A stretch of 37,751 nt of DNA from an uncultured Ruminococcus sp. (GCA_902796205.1 CADBOE010000124.1:1-37751), one strand, 5' to 3'; shown: positions 8,051-21,955, numbered from the stretch's first letter. Program-made: numbers and translations. The notes: generated by a model not told the origin, from the sequence alone.

Positions 8051-10051
8051 TCAGCTGATCGCGGCGCCGGTCGGAATATCTCCGTCTACTGTAAGAAGAG
8101 ACAGCTTTTTCCCTTTTGAGGCCGCAAGTATCATTCCCTGCGATTCGATTCCCATGAGGACCGCCGGTTTAAGATTCGTTATAAGAATGACCTTCTTTCC
8201 GGTCATTTCTTCCGGCGAATAATATTTCGCTATTCCGGATACTACCTGCCGCTCCTCGCTTCCGGTTGAAAGAATGAGCTTAAGCAGGCGATCCGACCCT
8301 TCGACCTTTTCCGCGCTTTTCACTTCAGCGACTTTCATCCTGACGCGCGAAAAATCTTCTATCGCGATCAGATTGGCCCCGTCGTTTTTGTCGTCCGCCT
8401 GAGCCTGCTCCTGTCCGCCGGCAGCCGGCGACGTCTGTCCGGCCGCTTTTGCCGCCTGTTCACGTATCCTGTCAAGTTCCTCGAGTTCCTTTTCGGTATC
8501 GATCCTCGGGAACAGGACCTCGCCCTTTTCGACCTTCGTTCCGTCCGGATAGACGCCCCACGACGCCGCGGTCTCCCAGAGCGTGAGTTCGGGTCTGCCG
8601 GCTATGCCGAGCTGCCTCCTGATCTTCGCCGGCGTATCTGGCATGAAGGGCTCGATGAGTATCGAGATGATCCTGATTCCCTCGAGAAGCACGTACATGA
8701 CTCCCGCGAGCCTCGCTCCGGCTTCCGGATCCGTGCCGGCGGTCTTCGCCAGTATCCACGGCGCCGTTTCGTCAATATATTTGTTCAGCCTCGACACGCC
8801 GCGCCAGATCTCGGCAAGCGCGGACGGGAACTGGAGCGCATCCATCTGCGTCTGTACGTTGCCGTAAATATCGGCGAAAAGGTCCCGGATCGTGCCGTCG
8901 ACGTCTTCGAAGCGTTTTCCGGCCGGCTGCACGCCGTCAAAATATTTCAGCTGCATTGACACGGTGCGGGAAACGAGGTTGCCGAGATCGTTGGCAAGAT
9001 CCGCGTTGATCCTTCCGATAAGCGCCTCGTTGGTGAAAATGCCGTCTGCGCCGAAAGGTACCTCGCGGAGAAGAAAATATCTTATGGCGTCGCTTCCGTA
9101 TTTCGCGCAGAGAATCCGCGGGTCGACGACGTTGCCCTTCGATTTTGACATCTTTCCGCCGTCGATCAGCAGCCAGCCGTGACCGTATACCTGTTCGGGC
9201 AGCGGCAGATCGAGCGCCATCAGCAGCGCCGGCCAGATGATCGTGTGGAAGCGGACGATCTCCTTGCCCACCAGATGTACCTGCGCCGGCCAGTATTTTC
9301 TGAATTTGCTGTCGTCCTCTCCGCCGTATCCGAGCGCGGTGATGTAGTTTGACAGCGCGTCGACCCAGACGTAAACGACGTGTTTTTCGTCAAACGTGAC
9401 GGGAATTCCCCAGTCGAACGACGTTCTTGAAACGCAAAGGTCTTCGAGACCGGGCCTGAGGAAGTTGTTGAGCATCTCGTTTTTGCGCGATACGGGCTGA
9501 ATGAAGTCCGGGTGGCTCTCTATGTAGTCAATTAGTCTCTGCTGATATTTTGAGAGTCTGAAGAAATAGCTCTCCTCCCGCGTGCGCTCAACAGGCCTGC
9601 CGCAGTCCGGGCATTTCCCGTCGGCGAGCTGCGTCTCGGTCCAGAACGATTCGCACGGCGTGCAGTACCAGCCTTCGTATTCGCTTTTGTAAATGTCGCC
9701 CTGATCGTACAGGCGCTTGAATATTTTCTGTACGGCTTTTACGTGAAAATCGTCCGTGGTGCGTATGAACTGGTCGTTCGTAACGTTCATGAGCTTCCAC
9801 AGCTCTTTTGTGTCGGCAACGATCCTGTCAACGTATTCCTTCGGCGTCACGCCTTTTTCGGCCGCTTTGCGCTGTATTTTCTGGCCGTGTTCGTCAGTGC
9901 CGGTGAGGAACATGACGTCGTACCCTTTAAGCCTTCTGTATCTCGCTTCCGCATCCGCGGCAACCGTCGTATATGAATGCCCGATATGCATGTTTCCGCT
10001 CGGGTAATAAATCGGTGTAGTGATGTAATAAGTTTTTCTCTCTTCTGCCAT
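8051..10051 (-). CDS. metG: Methionine--tRNA ligase with C-terminal tRNA-binding (Trbp111/EMAP-like) domain
   Basis: HIGH motif (GNMHIGHSYT), KMSKS motif (GGKMSKSKGN) and a zinc knuckle CTPCESFW...CPDCGRP. The C-terminus is ...VSGIAKYYSPEEMTGKKVILITNLKPAVLMGIESQGMILAA. RBS GGGGAGG precedes the start. Confidence 0.96.
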   Translation of the reverse strand: MAEERKTYYITTPIYYPSGNMHIGHSYTTVAADAEARYRRLKGYDVMFLTGTDEHGQKIQRKAAEKGVTPKEYVDRIVADTKELWKLMNVTNDQFIRTTDDFHVKAVQKIFKRLYDQGDIYKSEYEGWYCTPCESFWTETQLADGKCPDCGRPVERTREESYFFRLSKYQQRLIDYIESHPDFIQPVSRKNEMLNNFLRPGLEDLCVSRTSFDWGIPVTFDEKHVVYVWVDALSNYITALGYGGEDDSKFRKYWPAQVHLVGKEIVRFHTIIWPALLMALDLPLPEQVYGHGWLLIDGGKMSKSKGNVVDPRILCAKYGSDAIRYFLLREVPFGADGIFTNEALIGRINADLANDLGNLVSRTVSMQLKYFDGVQPAGKRFEDVDGTIRDLFADIYGNVQTQMDALQFPSALAEIWRGVSRLNKYIDETAPWILAKTAGTDPEAGARLAGVMYVLLEGIRIISILIEPFMPDTPAKIRRQLGIAGRPELTLWETAASWGVYPDGTKVEKGEVLFPRIDTEKELEELDRIREQAAKAAGQTSPAAGGQEQAQADDKNDGANLIAIEDFSRVRMKVAEVKSAEKVEGSDRLLKLILSTGSEERQVVSGIAKYYSPEEMTGKKVILITNLKPAVLMGIESQGMILAASKGKKLSLLTVDGDIPTGAAIS

Positions 10052-10131: not shown

Positions 10132-10158
10132 TGGGCGGGCGGCGGCGGAATCGAGCGG

Positions 10159-10396
10159 CGGCAACGGGGGACAGACCCGTGTTTCAAGGGAGCGGCAACC
10201 GGGGACAGACCAGTGTTTCAAGGGAGCGGCAACCGGGGACAGACCTGGGTTTCAGGGTGGCGGCAACCGGGGACAGACCAGTGTTTCAAGGGAGCGGCAA
10301 CCGGAGACAGACCTGGGTTTCAAGAGAGCGGCAACCGGGGACAGACTTAGGTTTTGGGGTGGCGGCAACGGGGGACAGACCCGTGTTTCGGCTTGG
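10159..10396 (-). repeat. Perfectly phased tandem array, 7 x 34 bp, unit CGGCAACCGGGGACAGACC(A/T)G(T/G)GTTTCAAGGGAG. It contains the REP-like A core in reverse orientation on the + strand.
   Basis: Units read directly: 10159-10192, 10193-10226, 10227-10260, 10261-10294, 10295-10328, 10329-10362 and 10363-10396. There is no unique spacer sequence between units. The array lies between the 3' end of the polyferredoxin gene and the metG promoter. Confidence 0.95.
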
Positions 10397-11222
10397 ATTC
10401 CGGAGATGAAATGCCGATCTTCAAGGCGCCGCGAGGACAATTGATCACGCACTTTCCACATCGGATACATTCGGGATCCGCCGGAGAAGAAACCGGATCG
10501 ACGCACATGTCGCAGACGCGAGAACATTGGCCGCAGCCGATACATTTTCCGGAATCAACGTTCATACGGATGAGGGATATCTTATTGAAGGGAGCGTACA
10601 GTGCGCCGAGCGGGCAAAGATATTTGCAAAACGGTCTGGCGATCAGGATTGAAAGCAGGACGACGGACGTCAGTATTGCCGCCTTGAACATAAACTGACC
10701 GCCGAATAGTTTTCCGATCGACGAATCGGCAACGCCGAGCAAAATACCGGAAAGGGTCCCGGACGGGCAGAGATATTTGCAGAATACCGGTATCAATTTA
10801 AAAAATACAGGCAGTACTATTACCGTCAGAATCAGCACCGCGTATTTTACCTTTCTGAGAAGCCGGTCTCCTTTAAACGACTTTATCTTTTTTACAAACG
10901 GGATCTTGTAAAGCAGGTCCTGCAAAAGGCCGAACGGGCAAAGAAAGCCGCAGACCGTACGGCCAAGCAGGACGCCGAAAAAAATCAGAAGTCCGAGCAC
11001 GTAGTATGGAAACTTGAACGTCCTGCTTCCGAGAAACGTCTGTAACGATCCGATCGGGCAGGCGCCGATCGCGCCGGGACACGAATAGCAATTAAGCCCG
11101 GGAACGCAGATTCCTTTTGACGCTCCGTCAAAGGGTTTTCCTGTGAAAAAGCCTTTCAGATTAGCGTTCTGCAAAACAGCCGCTATTCCCTGAAAGGCCA
11201 GTCTGTATCTGAAAAAAAACAT
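10347..11222 (-). CDS. NapH/MauN/CcoG-type integral-membrane polyferredoxin (4Fe-4S binding protein)
   Basis: N-terminal CYSCPGAIGAC. Three CxxxCP motifs flank TM segments (CGFLCPFG, CKYLCPSG, CKYLCPLG). Two C-terminal ferredoxin motifs are CIGCGQCSRVC and CIRCGKCVINCP. The start is uncertain: ATG 11222 has no clear SD, an in-frame TTG lies at 11354, and the longest ORF start (11471) overlaps the upstream micro-ORF. The last ~15 codons lie in the 34-bp array. Confidence 0.8.
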   Translation of the reverse strand: MFFFRYRLAFQGIAAVLQNANLKGFFTGKPFDGASKGICVPGLNCYSCPGAIGACPIGSLQTFLGSRTFKFPYYVLGLLIFFGVLLGRTVCGFLCPFGLLQDLLYKIPFVKKIKSFKGDRLLRKVKYAVLILTVIVLPVFFKLIPVFCKYLCPSGTLSGILLGVADSSIGKLFGGQFMFKAAILTSVVLLSILIARPFCKYLCPLGALYAPFNKISLIRMNVDSGKCIGCGQCSRVCDMCVDPVSSPADPECIRCGKCVINCPRGALKIGISSPESKPKHGSVPRCRHPKT

Positions 11223-11255
11223 GCGCTGGTAAGACGGGCGCTTTTTGAAGACTGA

Positions 11256-11339
11256 TTCGACGTTATCCGACTCTGCTTCGACGTTTTCCGACCCGGCTTC
11301 GACGTTTTTCGACCCGGCTTCGACGTTTTTCGACCCGGA
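11256..11339 (-). repeat. 4 x 21 bp tandem repeat (TTCGACGTTTTTCGACCCGGC on the + strand), in frame with the polyferredoxin ORF, where it reads (GSKNVEA)n
   Basis: Units at 11256-11276, 11277-11297, 11298-11318 and 11319-11339. The two central units differ at one position. Confidence 0.9.
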
Positions 11340-11370
11340 GCGGTCACTTTCCAATGTAATTCTGCCGCGT

Positions 11371-11511
11371 CTACCCAATTCCGATACACTCCAGACAGAT
11401 CCGCGAAGCCTTTTCAAAAACAGAAACGAATTGGCCGCTGAAAATGCCGGCGGCGACCAATATCGTTGCAAGCGTCAATGCAGCGGCAATTACTGCGATT
11501 CTTTTTTTCAT
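11371..11511 (-). CDS. 46-aa membrane-anchored CXXC micro-protein, not in the supplied ORF track: MKKRIAVIAAALTLATILVAAGIFSGQFVSVFEKASRICLECIGIG
   Basis: I translated it by hand from the minus strand. Its ATG (11511-11509) overlaps the TGA of the upstream thioredoxin gene as ATGA, which suggests translational coupling. It has a KKR N-terminus, a ~20-aa hydrophobic helix and a C-terminal CLEC motif 4 residues from the stop (TAG 11373-11371). From memory it resembles small 'CXXC motif-containing' proteins annotated next to such genes in Clostridia. Confidence 0.6.
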   Translation of the reverse strand: MKKRIAVIAAALTLATILVAAGIFSGQFVSVFEKASRICLECIGIG

Positions 11512-12149
11512 TTCAGAAACAATTTAACGATTGCTTCCCATCCGGAATAGTTTTTCAAGCCGACTACAGGATCCGGAGAAAGAAGATTTCCGTTGGCATC
11601 AATAAAATACGTCGTCGGCACGGCGTAAGGCGAGTATTTTTCAAGCCCGCCACCGCACCGCACGATCGGATATGTGATTTCCGCCGAATCAATGATATCC
11701 CTGACGTCGGCATCAGAACCGCGCGTCGAAAAAACGCCGATAATGACCAGCCCGTCTTTCGAATAATCCTTGTACAGCCTTGCGAGATCGGGCATTTCCC
11801 TGATGCACGGACCGCACCACGGTTCCCAGTAATTGACCATAACGATTTTCGCGTCCGAAAAATCAGACAGGCTGACCTCGTTTCCATCGACGTCCTCCGA
11901 TACGAACCAGAACGGCCCGCGGCCCTCCTGGCCGCCGCCGTCTGCCGGGGAAGACGCGGAAGGATCCGCCGTCCCGGAAGAATTGTCAGCCTGAATCTGA
12001 TCAATAAGGCCTTCAAATTCCTCGTTCCACCCTGCAAGCCAGCCGTTAAGTTTTCCGCAGCCGGAAAAACAAATCAGGCAACAAGCGGACAGAACGGCAG
12101 CCGCGACGGGAATCAGTATCATTTTCCGCAAATTCCCCGAATATTTCAT
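11508..12149 (-). CDS. TlpA/ResA-like thiol-disulfide oxidoreductase lipoprotein (thioredoxin fold)
   Basis: Signal peptide with lipobox (LICFSGC). Classical active site WEPWCGPC. Downstream thioredoxin-fold context is GLVIIGVF...YPIV....VPTTYFIDANGNL. An alternative start is the ATG at 12122. Confidence 0.85.
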   Translation of the reverse strand: MKYSGNLRKMILIPVAAAVLSACCLICFSGCGKLNGWLAGWNEEFEGLIDQIQADNSSGTADPSASSPADGGGQEGRGPFWFVSEDVDGNEVSLSDFSDAKIVMVNYWEPWCGPCIREMPDLARLYKDYSKDGLVIIGVFSTRGSDADVRDIIDSAEITYPIVRCGGGLEKYSPYAVPTTYFIDANGNLLSPDPVVGLKNYSGWEAIVKLFLK

Positions 12150-12227
12150 ATCTGAAATCTCATCTGAAACCTCATCCGAATCGTTCCGGCCTGCGGCCGT
12201 AACTGCAAAGCGGATTCTTCAACGTTG

Positions 12228-13223
12228 TCACGAGGCGCCGCCGCCGATGAGAGCGCCGAACGACTCCTCAAGAATTTTGACAAGACTATCGACAAATTCA
12301 TCAAGCGTGATCGATTTTTCTTCCTTAACTCCGTCGGTGGAAGCCTTCTCGGTAGAAATCGTAAGACTGCCGCTTTCGTCGGTAATGGTGATTTTTACTA
12401 CTCCGTCAATTTCAGAGAAAACGACGGTCCCCGCCCTTTCCTTGATGTCGGCGTCGTCAACCGTTAAATTCTTGAATGAATCGATAATAGAATTTTTCAA
12501 TTCGCCGATATCGTTCAGATTCATGTTCTTTTCGATCTCCGCGCCGAAATCCATGCCGGTGGCCTCTGACATCGTTTTAATAATCTCCGAATCTTTCAGC
12601 TCGTCTTTAAGCTTCGTGAGCATGTAATTCACGAGTCCTACCGTTCCGTCGGCAACTTTACCGGCATTGTCCTCTACGTATTTTTTAAGCTTTTCAAACG
12701 CGGCTTTGGAGTCTTCCACGGAAAACTTGTATTCGTAAGTATAAGTTTTCGTTTCTTCGTCATACTTTCCGGCTTCCATTTTTTCTTCGTAGCTTTCAAG
12801 AATCAACGAATACAAGCCGTTCATAAACTCGGTAAGAGCGGCAAATCCATCGCTTTTGACGAACGCATCGGGAAGTTCAAGAAACTCGCTGCCGTTCAGA
12901 TCAATGAGCGGATTCCCGTTTTGCGGGTTATCAATCGCGCCTGCGGGAACAAAAACTTTGTCGCCGATCCTGATGAAATCATACTCGGCAATATCTTTTA
13001 CGCTTTCAGAAACGAGCTTGACCTCCGAGAGAGCTTTTTTCTCAGCCTCTTCGCCGGCCTTTGCCAGGCTTGAAAATTTATCGTTAACAATGGTTTTGGC
13101 TTTGCTCATAACTTCTGACTTGCCCGGAACTTTAAGAGCCTTGCTGCATCCGGTGAAAGCAACCGACATCATCATAACGACGGCAACGGCGACAGCAATG
13201 ATTTTAAAACTGTTCTTTTTCAT
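12228..13223 (-). CDS. Orphan lipoprotein, Lys/Glu/Asp-rich, no family recognised
   Basis: Strong RBS AAAGGAGGAAAAGACC before the ATG. Signal peptide plus lipobox MKKNSFKIIAVAVAVVMMMSVAFTGC. It lies 78 nt upstream of, and on the same strand as, the TlpA-like gene. It is visibly more AT-rich than neighbouring genes. Confidence 0.8.
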   Translation of the reverse strand: MKKNSFKIIAVAVAVVMMMSVAFTGCSKALKVPGKSEVMSKAKTIVNDKFSSLAKAGEEAEKKALSEVKLVSESVKDIAEYDFIRIGDKVFVPAGAIDNPQNGNPLIDLNGSEFLELPDAFVKSDGFAALTEFMNGLYSLILESYEEKMEAGKYDEETKTYTYEYKFSVEDSKAAFEKLKKYVEDNAGKVADGTVGLVNYMLTKLKDELKDSEIIKTMSEATGMDFGAEIEKNMNLNDIGELKNSIIDSFKNLTVDDADIKERAGTVVFSEIDGVVKITITDESGSLTISTEKASTDGVKEEKSITLDEFVDSLVKILEESFGALIGGGAS

Positions 13224-13548: not shown

Positions 13549-13729
13549 GCAACGGGGGACAGACCCCGGTTTCAGCACAGTTCTCAATCAGGGTAACGTA
13601 CCGGCCTTCACCCCGGGAAGCACGCAGCGCCAACGCTTTTTACGAATTATTTCCCGTTATTTCCCGAAACCTGCAGAACCTGCAACCGGGGACAGACCCG
13701 CATTGCAACGGGGGACAGACCCGCATTTC
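13549..13729 (-). repeat. Three copies of REP-like A (reverse orientation on the + strand) in the 649-bp divergent intergenic region
   Basis: Copies at 13549-13573 (GCAACGGGGGACAGACCCCGGTTTC), 13681-13703 and 13704-13729 (TGCAACCGGGGACAGACCCGCAT / TGCAACGGGGGACAGACCCGCATTTC, directly abutting). Confidence 0.9.
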
Positions 13730-21649: not shown

Positions 21650-21955
21650 GCAACCCGGGTCTGTCCCCCGTTGCACCCTTCCGGGGACAGGGTCGAAACC
21701 GGGGTCTGTCCCTCGTTGCACCCTGCCTTGGGGACAGATCGAAAAACCGCGAAACCCGGGTCTGTCCCCCGTTGCATCTTTGACCTCAGCCTGATTTCGG
21801 GGCAGCCGCAACGTACCGGAAAATAACGGAAAATTTAATCCAGACAGCGGAAAATATCCGGAAATAAACAAGCAGAGGCCTTACGGGAAAACGATTTCCG
21901 CAATTGTCAGCATCGGTATATTAAAATGTGAAACCCGGGTCTGTCCCCCGTTGCA
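21650..21955 (+). repeat. Four copies of REP-like A (forward orientation) interleaved with inverted partial cores (GGGGACAG) in the 599-bp divergent intergenic region
   Basis: Copies at 21650-21675, 21695-21720, 21751-21776 and 21930-21955. Inverted GGGGACAG at 21683-21690 and 21731-21738 gives CTGTCCCC...GGGGACAG hairpin potential. Confidence 0.9.

Follow-up and report, generated by a model that had tools for sequence, protein, structure and literature searches.

Extracytoplasmic thioredoxins are thought to depend upon CcdA/DsbD. What, then, might serve a surface-anchored thioredoxin whose gene adjoins those of a tiny CXXC protein and a membrane polyferredoxin? This arrangement occurs in the window examined here (the whole 37,751-nt stretch of uncultured Ruminococcus sp. 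DNA that was analyzed), where the genes of interest are as follows.

12228..13223, minus strand: upstream lipoprotein gene (331 aa, lipobox FTGC)
11508..12149, minus strand: TlpA/ResA-like thioredoxin-fold lipoprotein gene (213 aa)
11371..11511, minus strand: CD1871A-family micro-protein gene (46 aa, NF040920 match)
10347..11378, minus strand: membrane polyferredoxin ('4Fe-4S binding protein') gene (Fer4_5, Fer4, Fer4_7)

A conserved 46-residue CXXC protein

The initial annotation had proposed a hidden 46-aa ORF at 11511..11371, the ATG of which overlaps the stop codon of the tlpA-like gene as ATGA, and this was borne out. Its product (MKKRIAVIAAALTLATILVAAGIFSGQFVSVFEKASRICLECIGIG) has a basic N-terminus, a single TM helix, and a C-terminal tail ending in CLECIGIG, with the CLEC motif (codons 11397..11386) positioned four residues before the C-terminus. 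The protein matches the NCBIfam model NF040920, "CD1871A family CXXC motif-containing protein," with 43.4 bits against a curated cut-off of 32 bits (E = 2.3e-11), residues 11-46 aligning to positions 3-38 of the 38 in the model. A PGAP family of 'CXXC motif-containing' proteins had been mentioned in the annotation, correctly, as RefSeq uses this name; it conveys no function, and our literature search found no publication on the family. The window also has the NF040920-type arrangement, i.e. a small single-TM protein with a C-terminal CXXC encoded beside a 4Fe-4S membrane protein gene. To place the ORF among its relatives, we compared 80 species-level genome loci related by their polyferredoxins, each with ±6 kb of flanking sequence, from Lachnospiraceae, Oscillospiraceae, Christensenellaceae, an Eggerthellaceae, a Treponema, and an actinomycete MAG. 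Intact homologues were present in 79/80 loci, in each case directly 5' of the polyferredoxin gene, and yielded 78 distinct sequences, in which ten positions are invariant or nearly so. Counted from the C-terminus, C-8, E-6, C-5, G-3, and G-1 are invariant, so the persistence of the ORF and of both Cys agrees with the earlier reading. The homologues end in C-[LM]-E-C-[IV]-G-x-G-stop, a motif that is always at the extreme C-terminus. Family members are always stand-alone proteins of about 45-60 aa and form at least 7,979 clusters at 90% identity and at least 3,409 clusters (representatives) at 50% identity. Because of the NF040920 match and the intact homologues in 79 of the 80 loci, we can conclude that, as judged from sequence, the 46-aa ORF is a real gene and well beyond a chance ORF. 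Given its charge bias (N-terminal head net +1.9, tail +0.2), the protein is predicted to adopt an N-in, C-out topology, which would place its CXXC outside the cell.

Conserved synteny of the thioredoxin, micro-protein, and polyferredoxin genes

A CxxC thioredoxin-fold gene lies directly beside the micro-protein/polyferredoxin pair in 73/80 loci, upstream of it in 57 (56 with an intact micro-ORF plus locus L050) and downstream in 16, while 5/80 loci have the pair with no thioredoxin gene within the fetched flanks. All thioredoxin partners examined contain a CxxC, mostly CGPC, CSPC, CPPC, or CKPC, and in most of them a lipobox, signal peptide, or N-terminal membrane anchor is evident. When loci were found from the micro-protein side, 4/4 were ordered Redoxin, micro-protein, Fer4_5, with overlaps of 1-4 nt and 8 nt; such start/stop codon overlaps indicate translational coupling. 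In Peptoclostridium acidaminophilum, RefSeq lists a 'TlpA disulfide reductase family protein', a CD1871A family protein, and a '4Fe-4S binding protein' in one short stretch, the latter two genes being adjacent. Synteny of the trio, on which the initial annotation depended, is strong in Clostridia and beyond. Micro-protein position -20 covaries with polyferredoxin residue 18, but clade structure confounds this signal. Our literature search found no paper on the trio, which is thus far unstudied and which, in gut-type anaerobes, is a widespread and tightly conserved module.

The thioredoxin-fold protein itself carries the FSGC lipobox (Cys31) and the WCGPC active site (residues 111-115, nt 11819..11805) previously described for this 213-aa lipoprotein. 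It belongs to the AhpC-TSA/Redoxin thioredoxin-fold superfamily, passing the Pfam gathering cut-offs for AhpC-TSA (60.7 bits) and Redoxin (46.3 bits) and having the CxxC. Its scores fell far below the NCBIfam cut-offs for ResA (73.8 bits versus 170), StoA (48.8 versus 210), and the TlpA equivalog (42.4 versus 230); on these scores, it is a TlpA-like fold protein rather than an orthologue of any of the three.

The 331-aa lipoprotein gene, which had been assigned to the cluster as an orphan lipoprotein, is indeed present 78 nt upstream of the tlpA-like gene. No homologue of it was found in any of the 80 loci, which places it outside the conserved unit. No ccdA/dsbD proved to be linked locally in the material covered: DsbD-family genes (PF02683 or PF13386) were found neither among the 20 window genes scanned, nor among 20 polytopic ORFs within ±6 kb of the 80 loci, nor among the recurrent neighbor genes of these loci. 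Similarly, no FMN-binding or ApbE partner, Msr gene, copper ATPase, oxidase, CopZ, or other metal gene recurs beside the module in the 80 loci, nor was a quinone-linked partner seen. In many loci, an OmpR-type response regulator and histidine kinase pair adjoins the module.

A membrane polyferredoxin with invariant Cys motifs

The polyferredoxin contains CVPGLNCYSCPGAIGACP, and its motifs, as well as a repeat between the micro-ORF and the polyferredoxin core, are located as follows.

11256..11338, no strand assigned: 21-nt tandem repeat, four copies
11108..11058, minus strand: N-terminal Cys loop C39-C55, C-x5-C-x2-C-x6-CP
10952..10935, minus strand: CX3CP-1, C91/C95
10781..10764, minus strand: CX3CP-2, C148/C152
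10628..10611, minus strand: CX3CP-3, C199/C203
10544..10434, minus strand: 2x[4Fe-4S] domain, two CxxCxxCxxxC motifs (C227-C237 and C252-C262)

The CYSCPGAIGAC-type loop, three CxxxCP motifs, and two CxxCxxCxxxC motifs are thus present as claimed, and 17/17 motif Cys are invariant over 108 homologues. The protein has >8,000 homologues (clusters at 90% identity), the top 120 of which share 61-74% identity. Its start position is uncertain: the core beginning at ATG 11222 and ending at 10347 encodes 291 aa, while a TTG at 11378 would overlap the micro-ORF end by 8 nt, an identical overlap being used by gene callers in five other loci. The TTG start would add a 52-aa N-terminus in which the tandem repeat encodes GSKNVEA-type repeats; no homologue N-terminus aligned to this repeat in the polyferredoxin alignment.

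Fer4_5 (PF12801) matches in three stretches with 74.6 bits (gathering score 22 bits), and Fer4 and Fer4_7 also match. The description of this protein as NapH-like stands at the level of the PF12801 superfamily and fails below it, as the NapH, CcoG, and NosR models are missed widely: TIGR02163 (NapH/MauN) gave 65.2 bits versus a cut-off of 213, PRK09477 (NapH) 60.5 versus 234, and TIGR02745 (CcoG cupric reductase) 20.2 versus 316.7. The layout also differs from that of NapH/MauN, with three CX3CP motifs and an extra 4-Cys loop compared with the two CX3CP expected, and no nap/mau genes (NapG/NapA, MauM link) occur in the window or the 80 loci. Neither a CCG domain (PF02754) nor an FTR catalytic signature is among the Pfam and NCBIfam matches. 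On these matches, the polyferredoxin is related to NapH at the superfamily level only.

Three strong TM segments and a strongly basic loop (residues 101-124) together predict that the ferredoxin domain, CX3CP-1, and CX3CP-3 are inside and CX3CP-2 is outside. The side of the N-terminal Cys loop is ambiguous in this model, as residues 8-27, the putative first TM helix, show only weak hydrophobicity (mean KD 0.67) and the Cys-rich loop (residues 28-71) has a net charge of +3.8, such that the loop could be cytoplasmic. An AF2 model has a mean pLDDT of 77.7, with its lowest values (50-66) in the N-terminal Cys-rich loop region. The PDB relatives cover the ferredoxin domain only, and a PDB search found no structural relative of the membrane domain.

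A candidate electron path to the cell surface

The trio probably serves to move cytoplasmic reducing power out to the cell surface. We give about even credence to the more specific proposal that it is one conserved, translationally coupled module forming a transmembrane electron path that keeps the surface-anchored thioredoxin reduced. In the polyferredoxin, the C-terminal 2x[4Fe-4S] domain, on the cytoplasmic side, would take up low-potential electrons, the donor most likely being reduced ferredoxin or flavodoxin in these fermentative Clostridia. Electrons would then cross the membrane through the NapH-type helical core of the polyferredoxin, in which the three strong TM helices end in Pro-kinked CX3CP Cys pairs. 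At the outer face, they would pass to extra polyferredoxin Cys (CX3CP-2 and probably also the N-terminal C-x5-C-x2-C-x6-CP loop) and to the CxEC of the single-pass micro-protein, which would be an obligatory small subunit in complex with the polyferredoxin and would act as the last thiol relay. Thiol-disulfide exchange would finally reduce the CxPC lipoprotein thioredoxin, which may in turn repair oxidized Cys or feed reductases on exported proteins. On this reading, the polyferredoxin and micro-subunit would reduce the extracytoplasmic thioredoxin in place of CcdA, a route that may be independent of CcdA at the genome level as well.

Several known systems share parts of this organization. Like the CcdA/DsbD systems that accompany ResA, StoA, TlpA, and Etrx, the module has a membrane component gene beside that of a secreted or lipid-anchored CxxC thioredoxin and a presumed role in supplying the envelope with reducing power from the cytoplasm. 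Both often have a two-component system next to them, and the adjacent pair here parallels the ModRS control of Fusobacterium nucleatum trx-ccdA-msrAB (PMC9239216), although the module lacks the linked Msr gene of the latter. The module differs from CcdA/DsbD in that its membrane component, an Fe-S protein bearing three CX3CP motifs, lies outside the DsbD family, a separate 46-aa CXXC subunit is included, and the electrons presumably come from a one-electron Fe-S carrier instead of cytoplasmic thioredoxin. TM helices ending in CX3CP are likewise found in NapH, NosR (NosH), RdhC (PceC), and CcoG (PMC5928378, PMC8238504), and NapH and NosR share the C-terminal 2x[4Fe-4S] domain. In comparison with these proteins, the window polyferredoxin has three CX3CP motifs rather than two, adds the invariant N-terminal loop, misses all of the equivalog models, and has an obligate micro-protein partner in place of an FMN-binding domain, ApbE, NapG/NapA, NosZ, or a reductive dehalogenase; its hosts also mostly lack the respiratory systems that those proteins serve. 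NapH-like PF12801 proteins already count as modular units for electron transfer across the membrane and thioredoxin-like proteins as interchangeable extracytosolic mediators (PMC8238504), while the CX3CP motifs of NapH, NosR, and RdhC have been assigned no function (PMC5928378), which counts against our proposal. The micro-protein also has a parallel in DUF4266, a secreted protein of small size with a C-terminal CXC that is proposed to cycle redox states in DsbD/ApbE/DUF3570/thioredoxin-like clusters (PMC8238504). Both are tiny proteins with a conserved C-terminal Cys pair encoded within extracytosolic electron-transfer gene clusters, but they belong to different families: the micro-protein has CxEC-x-G-x-G rather than CXC, is TM-anchored rather than secreted, and is tied to a NapH-like Fe-S protein rather than to DsbD and flavinylation. 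The proposed pathway would need the same chemistry as ferredoxin:thioredoxin reductase and HdrB/DsrK, in which one-electron Fe-S carriers support two-electron disulfide reduction; in contrast to the polyferredoxin, these have an FTR or CCG-domain signature and are soluble or cytoplasm-facing, not outward transmembrane relays.

Alternative explanations

It is possible, if unlikely, that the micro-protein is a structural or cofactor-binding subunit with no thiol relay, its CxEC and the polyferredoxin Cys ligating an extra Fe-S cluster or metal ion, such that cluster hopping moves the electrons and FTR/Hdr-like cluster-disulfide chemistry reduces the thioredoxin. There are twelve non-ferredoxin Cys in all and hence room for three 4-Cys sites, several motifs end in 'CP' like those of ferredoxin clusters, and PF12801 bears the Pfam name of a 4Fe-4S binding domain. 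The Glu between the micro-protein Cys and the G-x-G end, both invariant, further suggest a precisely packed site, and the low AF2 confidence of the Cys loop modeled alone fits a composite site awaiting its partner or cofactor. Nonetheless, we know of no route by which Fe-S clusters could be built at the outer face of a protein inserted by Sec/YidC, and the Pfam search revealed no CCG/Hdr or FTR domain in the polyferredoxin. NosR, which shares the CX3CP membrane module, is reported to have only ~8 Fe, enough for its two ferredoxin clusters (PMC5928378, citing Wunsch and Zumft 2005).

We are more doubtful still that the same complex runs in reverse, with the lipoprotein as a DsbA-like oxidase and the polyferredoxin and micro-protein as a quinone-independent DsbB/VKOR analogue that, in quinone-poor anaerobes, takes electrons from thiols at the surface and delivers them to the cytoplasm. 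The architecture is symmetric as to direction, the 80 loci showed no quinone-linked partner, and disulfide-forming enzymes of Clostridia are reportedly poorly characterized (PMC12453122). Yet the active sites are W-C-[GSPT]-P-C on an AhpC-TSA/Redoxin fold, typical of reductants, and not DsbA-type CPHC with a helical insert, and the best NCBIfam matches of the lipoprotein are the reductases ResA, StoA, and TlpA. Low-potential [4Fe-4S] ferredoxin domains are also poor sinks for thiol oxidation.

There is only a slight chance that the module is a CcoG-like metal or metalloid reductase, extracytoplasmic or cytoplasmic (e.g. Cu(II) to Cu(I)), working with a thiol protein of the Sco/TlpA-like kind and a micro-protein whose CXXC binds metal. 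Binding of soft metals is common among CXXC motifs, and weak matches exist to CcoG (20.2 bits) and, in one partner thioredoxin, to SCO1/SenC (24.2 bits), but the CcoG cut-off is far from reached, the metal genes listed above do not recur nearby, and cbb3-type oxidases would not be expected in fermentative Clostridia. Lastly, despite being a small ORF beside a Cys-rich Fe-S protein gene, the micro-ORF is most improbable as an untranslated ORF or as a ribosomally synthesized precursor peptide modified by its neighbors (the annotation, too, had rated the latter less likely), given its invariant C-terminus and variable N-terminal TM helix (the reverse of a leader/core pattern), the lack of a radical-SAM or other maturase domain in the polyferredoxin, the thousands of intact homologues of the same length and end, and the overlaps indicative of translational coupling.

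Implications for envelope redox biology

Returning to the outward electron path, we tentatively suggest, with less confidence than in the path itself, that the polyferredoxin and its 46-aa CXXC subunit represent an unrecognized class of transmembrane disulfide reductase, one driven by low-potential Fe-S carriers (e.g. ferredoxin) rather than by thioredoxin via CcdA/DsbD, with the Pro-kinked CX3CP pairs as its membrane-crossing thiol relay. Such a class might be the main export route of reducing equivalents to surface thioredoxins in thousands of gut and rumen Clostridia and in some spirochaetes and actinobacteria; by the cluster counts of both proteins, the module is very common. With three genes, the module is compact enough for direct tests by deletion, redox-state trapping, and reconstitution. 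If true, a protein of under 50 aa, of a kind that gene callers often overlook, can have an essential role as a redox subunit, and the membrane-relay reading would give a first function to the CX3CP motifs, long without explanation, in the membrane module of NapH/NosR/RdhC. A second, Fe-S-based route would likewise revise our view of envelope redox homeostasis and oxidative-stress repair in the strict anaerobes that dominate the gut and rumen.

Gene content and family assignments

The cluster consists of four consecutive genes on the reverse strand of the window, and inspection of the sequence recovered each of the motifs listed for it in the initial annotation:

13223..12228, reverse strand: 331-aa lipoprotein (lipobox FTGC), first of the four genes
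12149..11508, reverse strand: TlpA-like lipoprotein of 213 aa (lipobox FSGC, active site WCGPC), after a 78-nt gap
11511..11371, reverse strand: micro-ORF of 46 aa, whose ATG overlaps the stop of the TlpA-like gene as ATGA
ending at 10347, reverse strand: polyferredoxin, a polytopic Fe-S protein, last of the four genes

The window is otherwise ordinary chromosomal context (HtrA-like protease, MiaA, MutL, FtsW/RodA, Lgt, RibF, and sugar-utilisation genes) and also holds a 666-aa ORF (8051..10051) that we take to be methionyl-tRNA synthetase. An Rfam search around the operon returned no riboswitch or leader, and the promoter and terminator scan gave a result no better than that of shuffled sequence.

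The micro-protein belongs to the NCBIfam family NF040920, "CD1871A family CXXC motif-containing protein" (43.4 bits against a cut-off of 32), in agreement with the PGAP naming given in the initial annotation, and it matched no Pfam family. The TlpA-like protein has an AhpC-TSA/Redoxin fold according to Pfam, and its best named relatives in NCBIfam are ResA, StoA, and TlpA, all of which scored far under their equivalog cut-offs. The polyferredoxin contains three PF12801 (Fer4_5) units plus a 2x[4Fe-4S] ferredoxin domain, and gave only weak hits to the NCBIfam models of NapH (65 bits, cut-off 213), NosR (29 bits, cut-off 1000), and CcoG (20 bits, cut-off 317). Its family is large, numbering >8,000 clusters at 90% identity; the top 120 share 61-74% identity with the polyferredoxin of the window. 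As a single-sequence query, the 46-aa peptide retrieved only 2 proteins, and retrieval of its family required a profile built from 44 translated micro-proteins of related loci. This profile matched at least 7,979 clusters at 90% identity, which are named "CD1871A family...", "hypothetical protein" or, wrongly, "thioredoxin", and in an exhaustive scan it hit 3,409 representatives at 50% identity, of which 652 fell below 1e-10. Almost all matches extend to the last residue of a protein of ~45-60 aa. The best 120 and best 150 hits all measure 41-165 aa, and none of them is a natural "Rosetta stone" fusion of the micro-domain to a polyferredoxin or thioredoxin. A few database entries, such as P0125 (72 aa) and P0332 (165 aa), carry two profile matches per protein, which suggests either tandem duplication or mis-called ORFs.

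Conservation of the three-gene module

Using a profile of polyferredoxin homologues, we retrieved 80 loci, one per species, from a genome collection. These represent Lachnospiraceae, Oscillospiraceae, Christensenellaceae, and other Clostridia, along with an Eggerthellaceae genome and one MAG each of a Treponema and an actinomycete. All but one of the 80 (79 loci) carry an intact small ORF just 5' of the polyferredoxin gene and on its strand; the encoded peptide starts with a basic segment, continues with a single TM helix, and ends in K-[AS]-x-x-x-C-[LM]-E-C-[IV]-G-[ILV]-G-stop. Counting back from the C-terminal residue, G-25, C-8, E-6, C-5, G-3, and G-1 are invariant among the 78 distinct sequences and [E/Q]-20, V-16, K-13, and A-12 nearly so, while the N-terminal half varies freely. 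A thioredoxin-fold gene is found immediately upstream in 57 loci (L050 and 56 whose micro-ORF is intact) and directly after the polyferredoxin gene in 16; it is absent from the fetched flanks in five, and the remaining two loci are cut by contig ends. The trio is thus kept in 73/80 loci. Loss of the micro-ORF among relatives, non-conserved cysteines, or missing synteny would each have weighed against the module proposed in the initial annotation, and the loci, 79 of 80 with an intact micro-ORF, bear out none of these. The order Redoxin, micro-protein, Fer4_5 was also present in four loci reached independently from micro-proteins.

The sole locus lacking an intact micro-ORF (L050:5600-6100) retains a truncated remnant, MKKSIINNARILLIAASVVLITI-stop, in which the TM helix is kept and the CXXC tail is gone, and its thioredoxin and polyferredoxin genes persist. 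Either a pseudogene or an error in the MAG assembly could explain the remnant.

Every thioredoxin partner examined has a CxxC, mostly of the form C-[GSPTK]-P-C, and most have a lipobox, signal peptide, or N-terminal anchor. Longer partners have additional N-terminal domains that matched no Pfam family, save one chagasin-like domain. Two loci (L033:5252-5872 and L070:5243-5857) encode an additional upstream lipoprotein that is weakly thioredoxin-like and without CxxC; in both, a normal CxxC thioredoxin is also present downstream of the polyferredoxin. The 331-aa lipoprotein of the window (12228-13223) was counted in the cluster by the initial annotation, and here we part from it. This protein matched neither Pfam nor NCBIfam families, and none of the 80 loci encodes a homologue, so we rejected it as a module member; it is an orphan that probably has no connection with the redox genes.

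A pair encoding an OmpR-type response regulator and a histidine kinase (cluster 2) often adjoins the module, in 27 loci (e.g., L072:3898-5852, L033:3316-5228, and L084:2009-3804). The pair is usually divergent and is especially common where the order is micro-protein, polyferredoxin, thioredoxin; no such pair lies near the module in the window. No other neighbour recurs in the loci, including linked Msr, CcdA/DsbD, ApbE/FMN-binding, or metal genes. CcdA/DsbD was likewise absent from the window genes scanned, such that the window and locus flanks hold no canonical ccdA linked to the module, in keeping with the candidate CcdA/DsbD independence first proposed for it.

RefSeq/PGAP annotates the module on an 809-kb replicon of Peptoclostridium acidaminophilum as "TlpA disulfide reductase family protein", "CD1871A family CXXC motif-containing protein", and "4Fe-4S binding protein", with an opposite-strand MFS transporter gene between the TlpA gene and the other two. 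This extrachromosomal replicon (plasmid EAL2_808p; locus L086) carries the module in the neighbourhood of a type I restriction gene and an IS256 transposase. The namesake locus of the CD1871A family, CD18710, is listed under "conjugative transposon" in a C. difficile paper (PMC12772354). Some module copies sit in accessory DNA.

Boundaries of the polyferredoxin gene and associated repeats

In the invariant CLEC, the L-E codons read GGAG, and a TTG formed by the I-G codons of the micro-ORF follows 10 nt downstream (window 11392-11376); gene callers place the polyferredoxin start at the same 8-nt overlap in five other loci (L001, L083, L084, L085, and L086). Translational coupling may therefore account for some of the nucleotide conservation at the end of the micro-ORF. 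Four tandem copies of a 21-nt repeat (11256-11338) separate the micro-ORF from the conserved core of the polyferredoxin. If TTG 11378 is the true start, this repeat would encode GSKNVEA-type heptad repeats within a 52-aa N-terminal extension; none of the aligned homologues has such an extension.

A dispersed repeat with the core GCAACCGGGGACAGACC has 16 copies in the window, versus 0.01 expected by chance, at four places (10158-10389, 240-304, 13549-13721, and 21658-21954). Among these copies is a 34-nt x6.8 tandem array on one side of the four-gene cluster; the other side has more of them. The array has no spacers and is therefore not CRISPR-like. The polyferredoxin ORF has its final ~14 codons and its stop inside it, indicating that the C-terminal tail (…KHGSVPRCRHPKT) is repeat-derived.

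Predicted topology of the membrane components

The polyferredoxin has 17 motif cysteines, each invariant in 108 homologues, arranged as follows:

C39, C45, C48, and C55: N-terminal cysteines, in CVPGLNCYSCPGAxGACP
91/95, 148/152, and 199/203: three CX3CP pairs
two ferredoxin motifs

Hydropathy indicates strong TM segments at ~72-100, 125-147, and 178-197 and a weak N-terminal helix at 8-27, and the loop at 101-124 is very basic. We assumed a cytoplasmic Fe-S domain, as expected for a Sec/YidC-inserted protein. Together with the TM segments, this places the first and third CX3CP pairs at the inner face and the second at the outer face, the arrangement expected under the reported four-helix topology of NapH. 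The four-Cys loop (C39-C55) would also lie outside if helix 8-27 crosses the membrane as NapH TM1 does; given the net charge of the loop (+3.8) and the weak hydrophobicity of the helix, it could equally be cytoplasmic. The AF2 model is fair (mean pLDDT 77.7), being high in the TM helices and ferredoxin domain and lowest in the Cys loop (50-66). Sequence and fold searches of the PDB matched only the ferredoxin domain and nothing resembling the membrane core, which is therefore without a template.

The micro-protein has a head of net charge +1.9 and a near-neutral 22-aa tail, and is thus predicted to be N-in, C-out, which would put its CxEC on the side of the lipoprotein thioredoxin. With conserved cysteine pairs predicted on both faces, an incompatible topology lacking a cysteine relay, which would also have counted against the original proposal, is not indicated. 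Mutual information between the paired alignments (L003-L082) revealed a near-perfect pairing of micro-protein position -20 with polyferredoxin residue 18, namely E with T/S18 in 51 loci and Q with Q18 in 24, including the window, with 2-3 exceptions. The pairing coincides with two clades, and we rejected it as independent evidence of contact; it could reflect shared ancestry alone or a contact at the outer boundary of the membrane.

A putative transmembrane thiol reductase

The module is most likely a transmembrane reductase for the extracytoplasmic thioredoxin. The ferredoxin-like domain of the polyferredoxin would pick up electrons in the cytoplasm, its CX3CP-bearing helices would pass them across the membrane, and its outer cysteines and the micro-protein CxEC would deliver them to the CxPC lipoprotein, which would then reduce envelope targets. 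The membrane crossing is the weakest link of this proposal, since the role of the CX3CP motifs in NapH, NosR, and RdhC is still unknown (PMC5928378). Two alternatives are less likely, namely that the micro-protein ligates an additional cluster or metal site and that electron flow is reversed, making the module oxidative. Three features support the reductive direction: the thioredoxin-type active sites, the nearest named relatives (ResA, StoA, and TlpA), and the adjacent two-component system, which parallels the F. nucleatum oxidative-stress locus trx-ccdA-msrAB-modRS (PMC9239216). A CcoG-like metal reductase system and a precursor peptide encoded by the micro-ORF both find little support.

The proposed mechanism fits the view of PF12801 proteins as modular membrane electron conduits, as well as that of thioredoxin-like, cytochrome, and flavinylated proteins as interchangeable extracytosolic mediators, both taken from a published survey (PMC8238504). 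That survey dealt with NapH-like proteins solely where they occur in flavinylation (ApbE/FMN-binding) gene clusters, and the passages considered here describe no pairing of a NapH-like with a thioredoxin-like protein. Our literature searches found no paper on the trio as a unit and none on the CD1871A family, a database name without function. The module is widespread and backed by very strong genomic evidence, while its mechanism is one that we infer. Overall, it is a new combination of components whose kinds are already known, a NapH-like conduit and a TlpA-like thioredoxin, supplemented by an obligatory micro-subunit as the third member.
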